Below, in pieces: positions 1,319 through 8,662 of a stretch of 32,000 nt of DNA. Each line of letters opens with the position of its first letter. Positions within the stretch are counted from its first letter, which is position 1. The stretch is from an archaeon (GTDB lineage Archaea; Iainarchaeota; Iainarchaeia; Iainarchaeales; 1-14-0-10-31-34). Under the pieces are notes generated by a model. It was not told the origin of the DNA and did not search any database. It saw only the letters and a list, made by a program, of their open reading frames with translations. The stretch lies in assembly GCA_024277355.1 (NCBI GenBank), contig JAJRVL010000005.1:60001-92000 (forward strand), given 5' to 3'. The position numbers and the translations under genes are program-made.

Positions 1319-1380
1319 TAAATCACGTTTTTTTCCTTCAACATAAAGAATGCTGAAGTTTATACAGTGAAATCTGCTTT

Positions 1381-1388
1381 AAAAAAAA
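1381..1388 (-). terminator. Oligo-T tract (T8 on the coding strand), a candidate archaeal intrinsic terminator for the surface-protein gene
   Basis: The plus strand reads gcttt-aaaaaaaa-ctaag, so T8 is on the minus strand. It sits about 100 nt downstream of the 855-aa ORF stop and upstream of a TATA-like TGTATAAAC (about 1360-1368) preceding rpl3. Confidence 0.35.
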
Positions 1389-1483
1389 CTAAGTTTCTTT
1401 TCTAGCATTTATGCTCCTTAGAGCACAGTCTACTATAATAAGTAGTAATACTATTTTCTGCTGTAAAACTTATTTAAAGCTTT

Positions 1484-4051
1484 CTATTGCTTTTTCACAA
1501 GCATTACTACTATTATAATTATTATTGCAAGCAATCCAATTGTTACTGCTGCATTTTGTCCTAATGAAATTAACGCTGTTGCTGCTCCTATTTCTTTTGT
1601 TTCTGATTTAGTGTTAATTTCTTTGCCATTATCAAGAACAAATGAAACAGGAATTTCTTTTTCTGTTCCATTTGTTTTTAATTTAAAGAATACTTCTTTT
1701 GTTTCTCCTGCTTTAACTTCCACTTTAGTGTTTCCTTCTAGTGTCCATTCTTCTGGAATTTCAACAATCAAATTTCCATTGATTCCTTCTGCTGTTTCAT
1801 TTTCAATTGTTATTTTTAATTCTGTTTCATTAAATACTTTTTTTGTTGTTTCAGCGGAAATTTTTATTTCTTTTTCTTCAACAATTAATTCTATTGCTTT
1901 TTCAATTCTTTTTCCTGCTGATTCAACTACAAGAACTGCATTATATTTTCCTGAATTTTCTGCTTTAATTTCAATGCTTATTGTTCTATTTGAATTAGCC
2001 GGAATTACTATGCTTTTTTCATTTGCTTTTAATAAACCTAAATCTTCCATAAAAACTCTGAATTCTTTTGATGAAGAAGAATTATTAATTAAAGTAAAAG
2101 AAATGCTGTCATCTAAAGAAACTATTTTTTTTGAAGGGAAATCAGTTACTTCAAAAGCCTGTTCTGAAGAAATTATTTTTGTGGTCTTTGACTGAACATT
2201 ACATTCTGTTAATGAAACATCATAAACCAGATAATTTTCTTTCCCTTCTAATAATTCAACTTCAATTGTTTTTGTAAAAGAATAATTTTTTGGAATGTTA
2301 ATTGAATAAGGGCTTACACTTAAATTTGTTCCGTTAATTTTTATTGTTCCTGTTTTGCTTAAAGGATTGTTTATTTTTAATGTAATTTTTTCTTTTCCTA
2401 AAACACTTTTAATGCTAGGGACTTCCAAAGAAAAATCTGAACAATTGTCTGTTGTTTCCTGTTCTTCTTCATCTTCATTTCCTGTGTTATTGTTATAGTA
2501 ATCTGAATTATTTACTTTTAAGTTAAAACTTTTTCTTGTATCTGAAAAAGAACAAGTTTCTCCATTTTCAAATTTTCCTTTTACTTTAAAATAAGCAGTT
2601 GAAGTTTTATCTGAACTTACATTATCTGTTTTTACACTAAAAGAAACATTTTTTTCAGAGTTGTTATTTATATAAGAAGGAAAATCAATGTTTCTGAATT
2701 CTGCAAAAGAAGTAAATTCATCAAAGTCTATTCCTTCAATGTAAAATCTTTCATTTGAATTGTTTTCGACTGAAAAAGAAGCTGAAAAATAATCGTTTTC
2801 ATTTAAATTTAAATTTTTTGTATTTAAGTAAATGTCATTGCATTCTCCTTCATTAAAATAAGAATTTTCTACTGTAATGTTTACTGTTTCTTCTCTTATT
2901 TCTGAATAAGAACAGTAATTTCCGCCGGAATAATGCCCTGAAATTCTAATGTAAATTTTTCCTGTTTCATTAAATGAAACTGAATTACTGTTTATTTTGT
3001 AGTCAAATTCTCTTGAAGAGTTTTTTGGAATTAAGCTTGGATTATAACTTTCTGTTGCATTAAAATAAGAACTATTATCTAATACATCAAAATCATCAAT
3101 ATAAAAAGCTGAATCAGAATAATTTCTCACAGTAAAAGAAAAAGTTTCTGAGTCATTTTCCTGTATTCTTTCATTTGAAGCACTAATACTTATGTTTCCG
3201 CATGAATTATCAAATGAGTTATCTGAAACTCTTACAATAAAATCTTTTTTTATGTCTGAATAAGAACAGGTTTTTCCTGAAGCAAATTCTCCTTTAATTT
3301 TTAAAGTTGCAGTTCCGGTTCTATCTGAATTAACTTCAGAACTATTAACTTTCAGTCTTACTTGTCCTAAACCATCTGAAGCAATAGATGAATCATTTGA
3401 ATTAGTAAAAACTCCAAAAAATGATTCATATTCAACTGGTGAAACTCCTTTAATGTAAAATCTTTCATTTGAATTATTTTTTATATTAAAAGTAACAAAT
3501 TCTGTTTCATTTTCATTCATTGCAACTGAATTAGAAAAAATTTCTATATCGTCGCAATAAGAATCAAAACCTGAATTAACTAAATCTACAAAAGCAATAT
3601 TAGAGCCTGAATTATAATAATCAGTTGAATTTTCTGCATAAACAATTACTTTATATTTTGAATAATAATCATCAATAAAAAATGCGTCATACCAGTAAAC
3701 TGTCTTGTAATTAAGATAATTTAATGAAATATTTCTTGTATTAGTTGTCTTTAAATAAACCCAGCCGTTATTGTAGCCGTAAATTTCAGCATAAGCTTGA
3801 ATCCAGTCGTTGTAATAATAGTCGCCGTAATAATTATAATAATCCAAAAAAAGTTCTGCTCTTATGTCAACTGCATCGTTGTCGTTTACATTAATTGAAT
3901 TACTCCAATAAGAATCATAATCGCTTCTTAATTCAACTGAAGAAACTTCAACAAAAAAAGGATGCGAAGTATCAGTAAACACAGCTGAATTCACATTAGA
4001 TAAAATAAAAATTAAAAGCATTATTATAGACAAAAACTTTCTCATAAACAA
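1484..4051 (-). CDS. Large secreted, C-terminally membrane-anchored surface protein (S-layer/CARDB- or NEW3-like Ig-fold repeats), probably heavily N-glycosylated
   Basis: There is an N-terminal signal peptide (MFMRKFLSIIMLLIFILSNVNSA) and a C-terminal TM anchor followed by KKQ (VTIGLLAIIIIIVVMLVKKQ). The N-domain is Tyr/Asn-rich (YYNYYGDYYYNDW). Three repeats of about 118-120 aa each carry a Cys pair. The C-terminal modules fit the pattern ...IPEEWTLEGNTKVEVKAGETKEVFFKLK..., typical of archaeal cell-surface Ig-like domains. I hand-counted about 30 N-X-S/T sequons. Confidence 0.7.
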   Translation of the reverse strand: MFMRKFLSIIMLLIFILSNVNSAVFTDTSHPFFVEVSSVELRSDYDSYWSNSINVNDNDAVDIRAELFLDYYNYYGDYYYNDWIQAYAEIYGYNNGWVYLKTTNTRNISLNYLNYKTVYWYDAFFIDDYYSKYKVIVYAENSTDYYNSGSNIAFVDLVNSGFDSYCDDIEIFSNSVAMNENETEFVTFNIKNNSNERFYIKGVSPVEYESFFGVFTNSNDSSIASDGLGQVRLKVNSSEVNSDRTGTATLKIKGEFASGKTCSYSDIKKDFIVRVSDNSFDNSCGNISISASNERIQENDSETFSFTVRNYSDSAFYIDDFDVLDNSSYFNATESYNPSLIPKNSSREFDYKINSNSVSFNETGKIYIRISGHYSGGNYCSYSEIREETVNITVENSYFNEGECNDIYLNTKNLNLNENDYFSASFSVENNSNERFYIEGIDFDEFTSFAEFRNIDFPSYINNNSEKNVSFSVKTDNVSSDKTSTAYFKVKGKFENGETCSFSDTRKSFNLKVNNSDYYNNNTGNEDEEEQETTDNCSDFSLEVPSIKSVLGKEKITLKINNPLSKTGTIKINGTNLSVSPYSINIPKNYSFTKTIEVELLEGKENYLVYDVSLTECNVQSKTTKIISSEQAFEVTDFPSKKIVSLDDSISFTLINNSSSSKEFRVFMEDLGLLKANEKSIVIPANSNRTISIEIKAENSGKYNAVLVVESAGKRIEKAIELIVEEKEIKISAETTKKVFNETELKITIENETAEGINGNLIVEIPEEWTLEGNTKVEVKAGETKEVFFKLKTNGTEKEIPVSFVLDNGKEINTKSETKEIGAATALISLGQNAAVTIGLLAIIIIIVVMLVKKQ
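2444..3556 (-). repeat. Three tandem intragenic domain repeats (about 118, 120 and 133 aa) inside the surface protein
   Basis: The repeats start at C166, C284 and C404. The partner Cys residues are C262, C380 and C500, exactly 96 residues later in each copy. Shared motifs are NERFYI(K/E)G and C-S-(Y/F)-S-(D/E). A 24-nt block, aatgtaaaatctttcatttgaatt, is identical at 2738-2761 and 3452-3475. Those are 714 nt apart, which equals two repeat units. Confidence 0.8.
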
Positions 4052-4143
4052 CCACCATTAACCACTCAAAAGTGGTAAAATTATATATAAGTCTGTAATT
4101 TAATGTATTTAAACATAATGTTTGAGTTTTTTACTTCTTTTTT

Positions 4144-5574
4144 TTAACCTTTTACAACTCCAATTGGAGTTAATCTTGCAACTTTTTTTGCTATTCCGCT
4201 TACTTCTAATGAATTAATTACTTCATCTATATCTTTGTATGCTTCAGGCATTTCTTCAGATAAAGTTTTTGGAGATCTGGACTTAACAAATCTTCCGTTT
4301 TCTTCCATTTCTTTTTTTACTTGTTCCCCGTTTTTTGTTTTAATTGCTTTTGTTCTGGACATTACTCTTCCTGCTCCGTGGGCAACAGAACCAAAAGTTT
4401 CCTGTAATCCTTTTTCTGTTCCTATTACAATCCATGATGAAGTTCCCATTGAGCCAGGAATAATTGCCGGATGTCCTGAATCCAGATAACTTTTTGGGTT
4501 TTCTTTTTTTCCTGCAGGAAAAGCTCTTGTTGCTCCTTTTCTATGAACTAATAATTTTTCTTTTTTTCCGTTTAATTCATGTTCTTCAAATTTAGCAATA
4601 TTATGTGCTACATCATAAACTAACTTCATTTCCATTTCTTCTGCTTTTTTTCCTAAAACTTTTTCAAAACTTTTTCTTGTCCAGTGAGTAATTAACTGCC
4701 TGTTTGCAAAAGCATAATTTACTGCACAAGCCATAGCTTCTAAATAATCTTTTCCTTCTTTTGAATTAATTGGAGTGCAGGCTAATTGTTTATCTGAAAC
4801 GTTAATTGAATATTTTTTCATTGCATTTTCCATTGTCTCTAAATAATCTGATGCAATCTGATGTCCAAAACCTCTGCTTCCGCAATGAATCATTATAGTT
4901 AAATTTCCTTTTTTTAAACCGAATTTTTCTGCTGTTTTTTCATCAAAAATTTTTTCTACTTTTTGTATTTCTAAAAAATGATTTCCTGACCCTAATGAAC
5001 CTAATTGTTTTACTCCTCTTTGAACTGCTTTTTCTGAAACTTTTTTTGGATTAGCATTTTCTAATTTTCCGTTTTCTTCTGTGTTTTCAATATCTTGTTT
5101 CCATCCAAAACCGTTTTCTACTGCCCATTTACTTCCTTTTTTCATTACTTCAATTAACTGCCTTTTATCTATTTTTAGTTGTCCTTTTGAACCTATTCCT
5201 GCAGGAACTTGCTTAAACAATTCTTCTAGTAATTCCTGTTCTTTTCCTTTAATGTCTTTTTCAGTTAAATTTGTTTTAATTAATCTTACTCCGCAGTTAA
5301 TGTCAAACCCTATTCCTCCTGGAGAAACAACACCGTTTTCTGAATTAAATGCTGCTATGCCTCCAATTGGAAAACCATAACCCCAATGACAGTCAGGCAT
5401 TGCAATTGAATATTTTTGTATTCCTGGAAGTTCAGCTACATTAACTAATTGTTGTATTGCATTTTCTTCTATTTGTTCAAGTAATTTTTTTGTTGCATAA
5501 ATTCTTGCAGGCACTAACATTTTTCCTTGCTTTTCTATTTCATAAATTCCTTTTTTTATTTCTTTTAAATTCAT
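4144..5574 (-). CDS. rtcB: RtcB RNA 3'-phosphate ligase (tRNA-splicing ligase)
   Basis: The 476-aa ORF carries RtcB metal and GTP-site motifs: MPDCHWGYGFPIGG, GFDINCG, GSGNHFLE, HCGSRGFGHQ, HNIA, HRKGATRA and HGAGR. The length is canonical, so there is no intein. Confidence 0.95.
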   Translation of the reverse strand: MNLKEIKKGIYEIEKQGKMLVPARIYATKKLLEQIEENAIQQLVNVAELPGIQKYSIAMPDCHWGYGFPIGGIAAFNSENGVVSPGGIGFDINCGVRLIKTNLTEKDIKGKEQELLEELFKQVPAGIGSKGQLKIDKRQLIEVMKKGSKWAVENGFGWKQDIENTEENGKLENANPKKVSEKAVQRGVKQLGSLGSGNHFLEIQKVEKIFDEKTAEKFGLKKGNLTIMIHCGSRGFGHQIASDYLETMENAMKKYSINVSDKQLACTPINSKEGKDYLEAMACAVNYAFANRQLITHWTRKSFEKVLGKKAEEMEMKLVYDVAHNIAKFEEHELNGKKEKLLVHRKGATRAFPAGKKENPKSYLDSGHPAIIPGSMGTSSWIVIGTEKGLQETFGSVAHGAGRVMSRTKAIKTKNGEQVKKEMEENGRFVKSRSPKTLSEEMPEAYKDIDEVINSLEVSGIAKKVARLTPIGVVKG

Positions 5575-5586
5575 TTTGTCTTCACT

Positions 5587-6021
5587 TTAAACATCAACTA
5601 ATACTTCTGCTGTCCATTCTTCTTTTTTTTCTACTTTGAATTCATGTTTTGTTATTGCTTTGATTTCTGTTTTGATTTCGTGTTTGTCTAAATTAATTTT
5701 TTCTCCTAAACAGAAAACTATTAATTTAAATTCAGTTTTTTCATTGATTTTTTTTTCTGTTAATTTTTTTATTTGAAATTCAGAAAAAATTAATTCGTTT
5801 GCATCAATTTCAAATAATAATTCCTGCAAAAATTTAAATAAAAGTTGTTCAAATGATTCTGCTTTAATTTCAATTATTCCTTTTCCTTTTTTTTCTATTT
5901 CTTTTAAGTCAATAATTGAATTGCATAAAGCTTTACCTGAATTAATAATTAGTTCTTCTTTTGTTTTGCCGTAAGCCTTAAATTTAATGTCTGCTGTATG
6001 CTCTAAATATTCATATTGCAT
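5587..6021 (-). CDS. Archease (RtcB activator)
   Basis: The 144-aa ORF has the N-terminal MQYEYLEHTADIKFKAYG signature (Y-x-EHTAD) typical of archease. It lies 12 nt upstream of rtcB on the same strand. Confidence 0.85.
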   Translation of the reverse strand: MQYEYLEHTADIKFKAYGKTKEELIINSGKALCNSIIDLKEIEKKGKGIIEIKAESFEQLLFKFLQELLFEIDANELIFSEFQIKKLTEKKINEKTEFKLIVFCLGEKINLDKHEIKTEIKAITKHEFKVEKKEEWTAEVLVDV

Positions 6022-6040
6022 AATAAAAGAAAGGAAACCA

Positions 6041-6052
6041 GCTTTTATTAAA
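6041..6052 (-). promoter_or_regulatory. TATA-like box (TTTAATAAAAGC on the minus strand) upstream of archease; the spacing suggests a leaderless or near-leaderless transcript
   Basis: The element is centred about 26 nt upstream of the archease ATG (6019-6021). This matches the usual archaeal distance from TATA box to transcription start. Confidence 0.4.
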
Positions 6053-6070
6053 GGTTTTTAAAATTAGAAA

Positions 6071-6379
6071 TTATTCCTTTAATTCAATTTCAACGTGAAC
6101 TTGTTCTGGGATTTCTACTCTCATTATTCTTCTTAAAGTTCTTTCGTCTGCTTCAATGTCTAATAATCTTTTATGAATTCTCATTTCCCATTTATCAATT
6201 GAACTTGTTCCGCCGCCAGGCATTCCTTTTCTTGTAGGAACAGTTAATTTTCTTGTAGGTAAAGGAATACTTCCTGAATGCTTTACTCCTGTTCTGTTTG
6301 CGACTTCTTTAATTTTTTCACAGATATCTTCAAGTAATTTGAAGTCAGGGCTTGTTAATTTAATTCTTGCTTTTCTCAT
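6071..6379 (-). CDS. rps10: 30S ribosomal protein uS10
   Basis: MRKARIKLTSPDFKLLEDICEKIKEVANRTGVKHSGSIPLPTRKLTVPTRKGMPGGGTSSIDKWEMRIHKRLLDIEADERTLRRIM is a classic archaeal uS10. I chose the start at the fourth ORF codon (MRKARI); the ORF track extends to 6388. Confidence 0.93.
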   Translation of the reverse strand: MRKARIKLTSPDFKLLEDICEKIKEVANRTGVKHSGSIPLPTRKLTVPTRKGMPGGGTSSIDKWEMRIHKRLLDIEADERTLRRIMRVEIPEQVHVEIELKE

Positions 6380-6455
6380 ATATATCAATATTCCTTTGAT
6401 TTAATCTTTTCTAAAATAGCTTAAAAAAGATAAAAGAAATGAAAGCTTAAAGCCT

Positions 6456-7721
<1,266 letters not shown>

Positions 7722-7729
7722 TTGAAATA

Positions 7730-7736
7730 CACCTCC
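7730..7736 (-). promoter_or_regulatory. Shine-Dalgarno sequence (GGAGGTG) for tuf
   Basis: Plus-strand cacctcc at 7730-7736 gives GGAGGTG on the minus strand, with an 8-nt spacer to the ATG at 7721. Confidence 0.6.
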
Positions 7737-7890
7737 AAAGGTAAAATTCACTTTAATGTTTGAACATTTAATTTTGTAAAAAAACACTTTAATTAAAGAA
7801 AATAGTGCTTTCTCCAATTATTATTCTTTAAAACAAAAACTATTTAAATGCTTTTATAAAGGATTCTGGATTCTTTTAACTTAAAAAACA

Positions 7891-7906
7891 TATTTTTAAA
7901 TTAAAG
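7891..7906 (+). promoter_or_regulatory. TATA-like box (TATTTTTAAATTAAAG) for the plus-strand orphan gene; probably a leaderless mRNA
   Basis: The element is centred about 27 nt upstream of the ATG at 7925. No Shine-Dalgarno is visible between it and the ATG. Confidence 0.4.
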
Positions 7907-7924
7907 TTTGAAGTTAATTATTTT

Positions 7925-8662
7925 ATGCCAAAAGGAAAAAACAGGCTGCCTAAAAGCAGGTTAGTGGAAGTTCTTTCAGAGAAAAAAAAAGTGTTGGAAA
8001 TAAAAAGACCTAAATCAATGGAAAAAAGCAGGATTATTTCTCCTAAACTGGCTTTAAAGACTGCAGTAACTTTTTTAAATGATGCGACAAAAAGAAATTC
8101 TAATAATTCAACTAAATTTTTTCATAAATTAAAATCTTCAAAAAGTACAAGTTCTTTTGCTATTTTTGGTTTTGGTGGAAGAAATATTAACAGAGGAGCT
8201 TTTGTTCAAAGAATTGAATCCATATTAAAAGGAGATGATTTAACTGAAGTTAAAAGACAGTTTGAAAGACAGTTTAGTAAATTAACAAGATATTCTTTGG
8301 CTGATTTAGTTGAATTAAGCGGAAGTCCTTTGTTAGGTTCAAGAGGAACCGCTAAAGTTGAAGTTACAAAAAAAAATGGCGTTAATAATGTTGTTTTGCT
8401 TGGTGCGGCTGTTCCAAGTTTTAAAAGAAATTCTACAGTAGTTGAAAGAAATAAGCGTTTTCTTTATGAAAATTTAATTAATAATGTTAGAAGGGTTTAT
8501 GGAAAAAAAACTAATTTTACAATTAGAATTCCAAAAGAAGATTCAAGAATTGCAAGTTATTTAGAAAGCAAATTTGTTATTGAAAAAACTGAATCAATGC
8601 CTAATATTATAAGTTTAACAATAGACTTAAGTAAAACATATAAAAGAAAAAAAGGAAAATAA
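7925..8662 (+). CDS. Hypothetical basic protein (245 aa), no family recognised
   Basis: This is a clean ATG-to-TAA ORF and the only plus-strand gene within the first 20 kb. It has its own TATA-like box and a T9 tract after the stop. The composition is Lys/Arg/Ser/Asn-rich, with no Cys and a single His. I recognise no catalytic motif. Confidence 0.55.
   Translation: MPKGKNRLPKSRLVEVLSEKKKVLEIKRPKSMEKSRIISPKLALKTAVTFLNDATKRNSNNSTKFFHKLKSSKSTSSFAIFGFGGRNINRGAFVQRIESILKGDDLTEVKRQFERQFSKLTRYSLADLVELSGSPLLGSRGTAKVEVTKKNGVNNVVLLGAAVPSFKRNSTVVERNKRFLYENLINNVRRVYGKKTNFTIRIPKEDSRIASYLESKFVIEKTESMPNIISLTIDLSKTYKRKKGK

Follow-up and report, generated by a model that had tools for sequence, protein, structure and literature searches.

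A transmembrane-anchored Ig-like repeat protein with invariant cysteine pairs, encoded between rtcB and rpl3 in Iainarchaeales, as a possible envelope stalk

Among the Ig (immunoglobulin)-like arrays found on archaeal surfaces, csg is lipid-anchored. SlaB is the membrane-anchored surface-layer (S-layer) stalk of Sulfolobales (PDB 8QOX; eLife 2024, PMC10903991), in which an Ig-like β-sandwich stalk with a C-terminal transmembrane anchor partners an anchorless lattice protein. PySLP of Pyrobaculum (bioRxiv 10.64898/2026.08.21.746120) consists of a tandem Ig pillar with a transmembrane helix, a basic tail and a lineage-variable number of domains. Similarly, csg of Haloferax volcanii (PMC8640222) and NmSLP of Nitrosopumilus maritimus (PMC11153153) are acidic, heavily N-glycosylated arrays of Ig-like domains. 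Here, we analyzed a gene on the minus strand of a 32,000-nt stretch (the window; contig JAJRVL010000005.1 of assembly GCA_024277355.1) from an archaeon of the order Iainarchaeales. The gene lies between rtcB and rpl3 and encodes a surface protein whose Ig-array stalk architecture, by analogy, parallels those of SlaB and PySLP. Our preferred, still tentative, reading is that this protein is a rigid, glycosylated, membrane-anchored stalk or spacer of the cell envelope, possibly an S-layer tether.

The comparison with each described system also revealed differences. The surface protein shares the transmembrane anchor and β-sandwich domains of SlaB, but neither its coiled coil nor its adjacency to the lattice gene; SlaB has a long coiled coil and its gene stands beside slaA, whereas the surface protein is modeled as all-β apart from the transmembrane helix, and its gene and the S-layer gene are on separate contigs. 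No similarity to SlaB was detected in sequence. PySLP, which was compared by architecture only, also forms the lattice (292 kDa, 19 domains), whereas the source genome has a separate S-layer gene. There was likewise no sequence relationship to csg or NmSLP; the surface protein contains no PGF-type motif, and Cys pairs are not a reported feature of these two proteins.

A sequence-only reading of the gene had proposed a signal peptide, a Tyr-rich N-terminal string, an acidic linker and a C-terminal transmembrane anchor, all of which were present (Table 1; residue numbers of domains and Cys are those of the 855-aa listed open reading frame). The signal peptide reads MRKFLS...VNS/AVF. Modeling of the whole chain with AlphaFold 2 (AF2) gave an all-β chain that ends in a C-terminal helix: the head is followed by the three repeats, a disordered linker and a further three sandwiches; the per-residue confidence (pLDDT) of the domains was ~80-90, and the predicted template-modeling score (pTM) was low, as expected of beads on a string. 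The ectodomain is thus predicted to be seven Ig-like β-sandwich domains in series. The head contains a Tyr-rich, low-confidence loop (pLDDT <50 at residues 71-78), and sequence and profile searches found no Pfam or PDB relative of it. No archaeosortase-type motif (PGF-CTERM and similar) was found before the C-terminal transmembrane helix.

The three tandem repeats R1-R3, each ~120 aa long, are mutually homologous (28-39% identity; BLASTP E 1e-20 to 2e-27), and their Cys pairs are spaced at exactly 96 residues as described before. A fourth pair, which was absent from the earlier description, lies in domain D5 with a spacing of 80. Comparison of D6 with the profile of the Cys-pair repeat (CysRep) in hhalign gave a probability of 92.9% (E 3.6e-7), and the relation of D5 to D6 was weaker in profile-profile comparison. 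All close orthologues have four Cys-pair repeats and ten Cys in the alignment, against three repeats in the window protein; judged from this alignment, the acidic linker replaces the fourth repeat, which was lost in frame in this lineage.

The fold was then classified from a single repeat modeled from 26 sequences, which showed seven strands (pLDDT 87.8, pTM 0.79). Its top Foldseek matches were the Ig-like C-domains of VesB (E 2.4e-4, TM-score 0.60) and VesC, a sialidase linker domain and PapD/MSP domains, with TM-scores of up to 0.63. The whole chain matched generic Ig, MG or ASH arrays only, with HYDIN/CFAP65 and α2-macroglobulin arrays at the top. Structure prediction and Foldseek therefore identified Ig-like sandwiches but placed them by generic matches only; in these models, the repeat has a generic Ig-like fold nearest to the VesB/HYDIN/PapD type. 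PDB searches by sequence and by profile returned no significant match for the whole protein, for the repeat or for the head. The closest Pfam group is PF22544 (HYDIN/CFA65/VesB-like Ig, within the wider PapD-like/ASH/MSP β-sandwiches), to which the structural matches of repeat and chain point; paralogues scored 23.4-25.2 bits against its cut-off of 25.5, and the window protein had no match. The invariant Cys pair and an NNS-x-RF motif are, in contrast, peculiar to the Iainarchaeales family. The C-terminal modules had been described as CARDB/NEW3-like, and this was borne out below threshold only. They share the overall β-sandwich shape, and D7 resembles NPCBM_assoc (PF10633, NEW3) and FixG_C, although neither model reached its cut-off in the window protein (15.7 of 24.4 bits and 14.5 of 25.6 bits, respectively; best orthologue E-values 9e-6 and 9e-7). 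CARDB (PF07705) found no match in the Pfam scan.

Next, the Cys pairs were followed through the family. With a hidden Markov model of the repeat, 351 of 353 instances that covered both positions kept both Cys; one had lost both, and one had lost one. The succession of a 96-residue pair and a 77-80-residue pair recurred even in family members of ~295 aa. In the single-repeat model, the first Cys (Cys13) is located just before strand A and the second (Cys109) in the F-G hairpin, both in confident regions. In Ig-like folds, the segment before strand A and the F-G hairpin lie at the same end of the sandwich. Furthermore, a paralogue cluster (P0080; 1039 aa, including AJF59738.1 of archaeon GW2011_AR10) was found to have a DsbA-like thioredoxin domain (PF13462, 7e-22) fused to the repeats, in the order DsbA-like domain, Big_9 Ig domain, three Cys-pair repeats and transmembrane anchor. 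Its gene is probably the one at 5500-8634 (-) of locus L036, and its domain content identifies it as a putative surface-displayed disulfide oxidoreductase on the same stalk module. Three DsbA-like proteins that are membrane-anchored at the N-terminus and carry CPFC/CPAC sequences are encoded in the source genome itself (Table 1), which suggests a well-developed machinery for disulfides outside the cytoplasm of this DPANN archaeon. Taken together, the Cys retention, the fusion paralogue and the anchored DsbA-like oxidoreductases lend good, if indirect, support to the proposal of one conserved disulfide per domain, and each Cys-pair domain likely forms one.

Analysis of the family showed that it is confined to one order. 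No Pfam or NCBIfam model scored above threshold for the surface protein. A word-indexed search returned full-length relatives at 43-67% identity, and an exhaustive profile search of 1.84 billion representatives returned 247 family clusters only. In the whole-genome search, the family was found in 161 of the 201 genomes of the class, all of them in the order Iainarchaeales (Diapherotrites), and was absent from ~20 genomes of other orders. This screen has false negatives: two genomes scored as having no match (G013 and G074) carry repeat genes in the slot between rtcB and rpl3, and one of them encodes a 1047-aa protein with Cys-pair spacings of 98, 102, 100, 83 and 79. As far as these searches reach, the Cys-repeat family is restricted to Iainarchaeales. 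A 2.5-kb contig labelled Nitrosarchaeum sp. (L031; JAHFUX010000055.1) encodes a four-repeat family member and is probably mis-binned.

The family architecture comprises a signal peptide, a variable head (20-726 aa), one to five repeats, Cys-less Ig modules and a transmembrane helix. In minimal members (~295 aa), which have no head, the signal peptide is followed only by a single repeat, a single D5-type domain and a transmembrane helix. From these comparisons, what stays invariant is a signal peptide, one or more CysRep Ig domains (Cys-96-Cys), a shorter Ig domain (Cys-~79-Cys) and a transmembrane anchor; individual lineages have extended this core by extra repeats and a head at the N-terminus. 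Because the minimal members lack a head, the conserved function would reside in the membrane-proximal, disulfide-stapled Ig core. Identity among family-level orthologues was even along the chain (52-67%) and highest in the membrane-proximal D5.

Glycosylation was assessed from N-X-S/T sequons, of which the earlier hand count had given about 30; the exact number is 30. Composition-matched shuffles contained 17.2±3.5 sequons and reached 30 in 1 of 2000 cases, and sequons were enriched in all 11 orthologues tested (11/11). Seven sequon columns were kept in at least 8 of the 9 full-length orthologues, roughly one per domain, in the NNS turn after strand B. The orthologues are all acidic (isoelectric point (pI) 4.2-5.1), and AglB/STT3 is encoded in the source genome. 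The surface protein is, from its sequence, probably N-glycosylated. Thus, the earlier view of a secreted, membrane-anchored, probably N-glycosylated surface protein of Ig-like modules was upheld.

From these features, we propose how the protein may work. It would be a type-I membrane protein with a Sec signal peptide, an ectodomain of ~800 aa, a C-terminal transmembrane helix and a short basic tail. Each Cys pair would form a disulfide between the segment that immediately precedes strand A and the F-G hairpin. The membrane-anchored DsbA-like oxidoreductases of the genome would introduce this bond extracellularly, and each domain would bear a conserved N-glycan site. Disulfides and glycans together would give a stiff, protease-resistant rod on the membrane. 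This rod may serve as a constitutive stalk or spacer between the membrane and an anchorless S-layer, and it may also tether that layer. We favor a stalk or spacer, with the reserve expressed above, because of the headless minimal members, the single-copy gene in a housekeeping location, the even conservation and the anchorless S-layer protein of the lineage.

The chief alternative is an adhesin or receptor, in which the Ig stalk is a display platform and the Tyr/Asn/Asp-rich head binds a host cell, a partner or a polymer beyond the S-layer. We regard it as a serious competitor, although a doubtful one, because of the variable length, the variable heads, the other candidates for a tether and a genus without the gene. 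Family heads differ widely in size, and paralogues bear DsbA-like or Big_9/He_PIG heads on the same stalk; the head of the window protein, with its disordered Tyr-rich loop, has no known relatives. Seven domains may reach perhaps 20-30 nm, and many DPANN archaea are ectosymbionts (PMC11329633). However, there is only one copy of the gene, and its place in a housekeeping cluster is the same throughout the order; between orthologues, the head varies no more than the stalk does (52% versus 52-67% identity); and with headless minimal members in the same slot, the conserved function cannot reside in the head.

The S-layer of this organism was also analyzed. The source genome has an S-layer gene on contig C2 (L083; Table 1), whose 946-aa product matches PF05124 (S_layer_C) with 50.8 bits, carries a signal peptide and has a pI of 4.3; NCBI and JGI annotate the relatives of this protein as 'S-layer protein' or 'TIGR01564 family'. 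A PF05124-type protein was present in 56 of the 61 genomes of the order. No C-terminal hydrophobic stretch was found in the S-layer protein of the source genome or in its 105 relatives, and five S-layer proteins of the order that were inspected directly end in a conserved GxIVVAG(Y/F)..ADT. Since this S-layer protein has no anchor, the lattice needs a membrane partner.

The sequence-only reading had suggested that the surface protein itself might be an S-layer protein, that is, the main or a second lattice-forming S-layer glycoprotein like csg, NmSLP or PySLP. Its signal peptide, tandem Ig-like domains, acidic pI, many sequons, transmembrane anchor and order-wide conservation fit this suggestion, and such features have been used to nominate S-layer proteins (bioRxiv 10.1101/2024.05.28.596244). 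Nevertheless, we rejected a lattice role once PF05124 revealed the canonical S-layer gene elsewhere in the genome, and we now consider it very improbable. The surface protein matches no S-layer family (no match to TIGR01564 or to PF05123 plus PF05124 in Pfam and NCBIfam), and family members of two domains (~295 aa) are unlikely to form a lattice. The Methanosarcina-type S-layer tile (PF07752/TIGR01567) had no match anywhere in the source genome. The same survey lists an Iainarchaeota S-layer candidate of 1039 aa (UniProt A0A2G9N319; Table S1); P0080, a member of the present family that is also 1039 aa long, carries other accessions.

Several observations weigh against a stalk or spacer beneath the S-layer. 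The surface-protein gene is on contig C3 and thus not adjacent to the S-layer gene on C2. An alternative tether is a 203-aa membrane protein whose gene lies immediately downstream of that for the S-layer protein, and another candidate is a 1508-aa secreted protein with a C-terminal transmembrane helix (L056; Table 1), which was full-length in 59 of the 61 order genomes at 31-45% identity. This 1508-aa protein had no Pfam, NCBIfam or PDB match, and its distribution marks it as a probable further core envelope protein. Furthermore, the genus of G015 and G040, which has no Cys-repeat gene in the slot, keeps the same anchorless S-layer protein. The length of family proteins, ~295 to 1350 aa across the order, is odd for a spacer of fixed width. 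Codon adaptation gave no help either: the surface-protein gene ranked 210 of 1050 and the S-layer gene only 698 of 1050, so that the measure was uninformative as a proxy of expression and was dropped. A bolder version of the stalk reading seems to us unlikely. In this version, the surface protein would supply the membrane attachment that the TIGR01564-type S-layer lacks; as a disulfide-stapled Ig rod, it would fix the width of the gap between membrane and S-layer, and the conserved position of its gene at the head of the rpl3 operon would couple envelope growth to ribosome synthesis.

Two further observations concern other proteins of the source genome. At least six secreted proteins of the source genome end in LPETN, ~20 hydrophobic residues and KK or KR (Table 1); the surface protein has no LPETN. 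No sortase (PF04203) was found in the source genome, and two short exosortase/archaeosortase-like frames (PF09721) were present at C3:12061-12486 and C10:92022-92384. From its sequence, the LPETN tail looks like an undescribed archaeosortase sorting signal. In addition, a 304-aa protein (L084; Table 1), present in all nine genomes of the family-level lineage, has an odd domain pairing, with an N-terminal winged helix (HTH_20/TrmB) and the C-terminal half of the S_layer_C model (45 bits).

The gene position was then compared across the order. As described before, the gene is flanked by rpl3/rpl4 and by rtcB/archease; the rtcB side also holds rps10, EF1α, a 245-aa gene and EF2. The order rtcB, Cys-repeat gene, rpl3 was found in three independent contigs, one of which has a GT4 glycosyltransferase gene in between. 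L3 and/or RtcB was encoded within the 1.5-kb flanks of 18 of the best 20 loci. Of a further 20 regions, which came from other families, 15 have the repeat gene immediately upstream of rpl3 and on its strand, even at L3 identities of only 40-50%; rtcB was upstream of the repeat gene in all cases where it fell inside the fetched region, to which this judgment is confined. Exceptions to the usual content of the slot were an unrelated short frame in G015 and G040 and three tandem Cys-repeat genes in G055 (L045; G055:C3:67419-83236; frames of 1087, 1062 and 731 aa), which is a local family expansion. By these comparisons, the rtcB-rpl3 position is ancient and conserved and not a variable insertion. 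The description 'inserted between rtcB and the rpl3 operon' therefore does not hold, as the gene occupies this slot throughout Iainarchaeales. Nor is the gene 'fast-evolving': along with the even identity given above, it changes at about the same pace as the S-layer gene. Within the genus, the surface protein shows ~66-69% identity, similar to two other large surface proteins, compared with ~80% for L3 and RtcB. It had also been asked whether the protein belongs to a well-characterized family at a conserved position; the position is conserved, but the family is uncharacterized.

This conserved position could reflect little more than the low rearrangement of the ribosomal supercluster, so that the gene would be a passenger with no link to translation and its product a membrane protein peculiar to the lineage but otherwise ordinary, for instance a sensor or substrate-binding protein. 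The supercluster has trapped further clade-specific genes, such as the 245-aa one located between EF2 and EF1α; the surface-protein gene has an apparent promoter of its own and a T8 tract before rpl3; and the slot can hold three tandem paralogues or an unrelated frame. We hold this quite unlikely as the explanation, because it leaves the near order-wide retention with invariant Cys pairs unexplained; it is, moreover, compatible with any functional reading rather than a true alternative to the stalk or the adhesin.

The gene itself was read as follows. The window is AT-rich (~29% guanine plus cytosine), and the source genome (1.13 Mb, 11 contigs, 96% complete) has a single copy of the surface-protein gene in the whole-genome search. 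The listed frame at 1484-4051 (-) is open for 855 codons from a TTG at 4049-4051. An ATG at 4043-4045, two codons inside the listed frame, is preceded by GGTGG 6 nt upstream, and the same ATG is the start in the orthologues and in the 853-aa database copy (P0002); thus, a product of 853 aa is the likelier one. TATA-like boxes were observed upstream of the gene (TTTAAATA at 4106-4113 and TTATATATAA at 4081-4090), with GGTGG at 4052-4056, and the gene appears to have its own promoter. The spacer before rpl3 holds TTTAAATA at 1471-1478 and the T8 tract at 1381-1388, which likely act as terminator of the surface-protein gene and as promoter or leader of the rpl3 operon. Owing to these promoter signals and the T8 tract, co-transcription with the rpl3 operon is not implied.

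Further observations were made on the flanking genes. The GT4-type glycosyltransferase gene between rtcB and the surface-protein gene (L002:6565-7821, -) is in divergent orientation. A close relative encodes an RtcB of 980 aa with an intein (PF14890; L004:2493-5435), whereas the window RtcB (4144-5574) has none; inteins are also suggested for L037 and L055, where the RtcB matches are split.

Table 1. Coordinates of the surface-protein gene, its domains and flanking signals (window positions), and of other genes in the source genome (contig:positions).
Feature	Position	Strand	Basis or remark
Surface-protein coding sequence, 853 aa from ATG	1484..4045	-	stop at 1484-1486; P0002 also 853 aa
Sec-type signal peptide, MRK + hydrophobic core, VNS/A (VNA/A in orthologues)	3986..4045	-	sequence, alignment, AF2 helix 2-22
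N-terminal Tyr/Asn/Asp-rich β-sandwich 'head', residues 23-154	3590..3985	-	AF2 strands 30-157
Cys-pair Ig-like repeat R1, residues 155-272, C166/C262	3236..3589	-	sequence, repeat comparison
Cys-pair Ig-like repeat R2, residues 273-392, C284/C380	2876..3235	-	sequence, repeat comparison
Cys-pair Ig-like repeat R3, residues 393-512, C404/C500	2516..2875	-	sequence; single-domain AF2 pLDDT 87.8, pTM 0.79
Acidic linker, residues 513-535	2447..2515	-	alignment; AF2 pLDDT <50 at 515-533
Shorter Ig-like domain D5, residues 536-630, C537/C617	2162..2446	-	sequence, alignment, profile comparison; best-conserved domain
Ig-like domain D6, residues 631-735, Cys-less diverged repeat copy	1847..2161	-	hhalign
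Ig-like domain D7, residues 736-820, NEW3 and FixG_C matches below threshold	1592..1846	-	Pfam scan, AF2
Juxtamembrane TAL(I/V)SLGxN, transmembrane helix, KKQ tail, residues 821-855	1487..1591	-	sequence, alignment, AF2 helix 821-852
Probable own promoter and ribosome-binding region	4052..4113	-	read from sequence; promoter function inferred
Spacer to rpl3, 165 nt	1319..1483	-	read from sequence; function inferred
S-layer gene (L083)	C2:446613-449453	-	
1508-aa secreted protein gene (L056)	C10:76249-80775	-	
DsbA-like protein genes	C11:42604-43386, C10:11070-11912, C11:36381-37010	-	
LPETN protein genes	C2:298209-301004, C2:19635-22277, C2:381315-383486, C2:267370-268998, C10:132095-133525, C3:6420-7580	+	
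Winged helix/S_layer_C gene (L084)	C6:13877-14791	+	

To our knowledge, Iainarchaeota (Diapherotrites) are uncultured, and no experimental work on their envelope was found in the literature searched. The general kind of protein described here, an Ig-array surface protein with a transmembrane anchor, is already well known. What the present analysis adds is an order-specific domain family that no Pfam model captures, with the signature Cys-96-Cys followed by Cys-~79-Cys, and a gene position that forms a stable landmark between rtcB and rpl3. The anchorless canonical S-layer protein of the lineage raises the question of what holds the layer in place. Finally, the Cys-pair repeats, including their natural fusion to a DsbA-like domain, make the use of disulfides outside the cytoplasm open to test in a DPANN archaeon.

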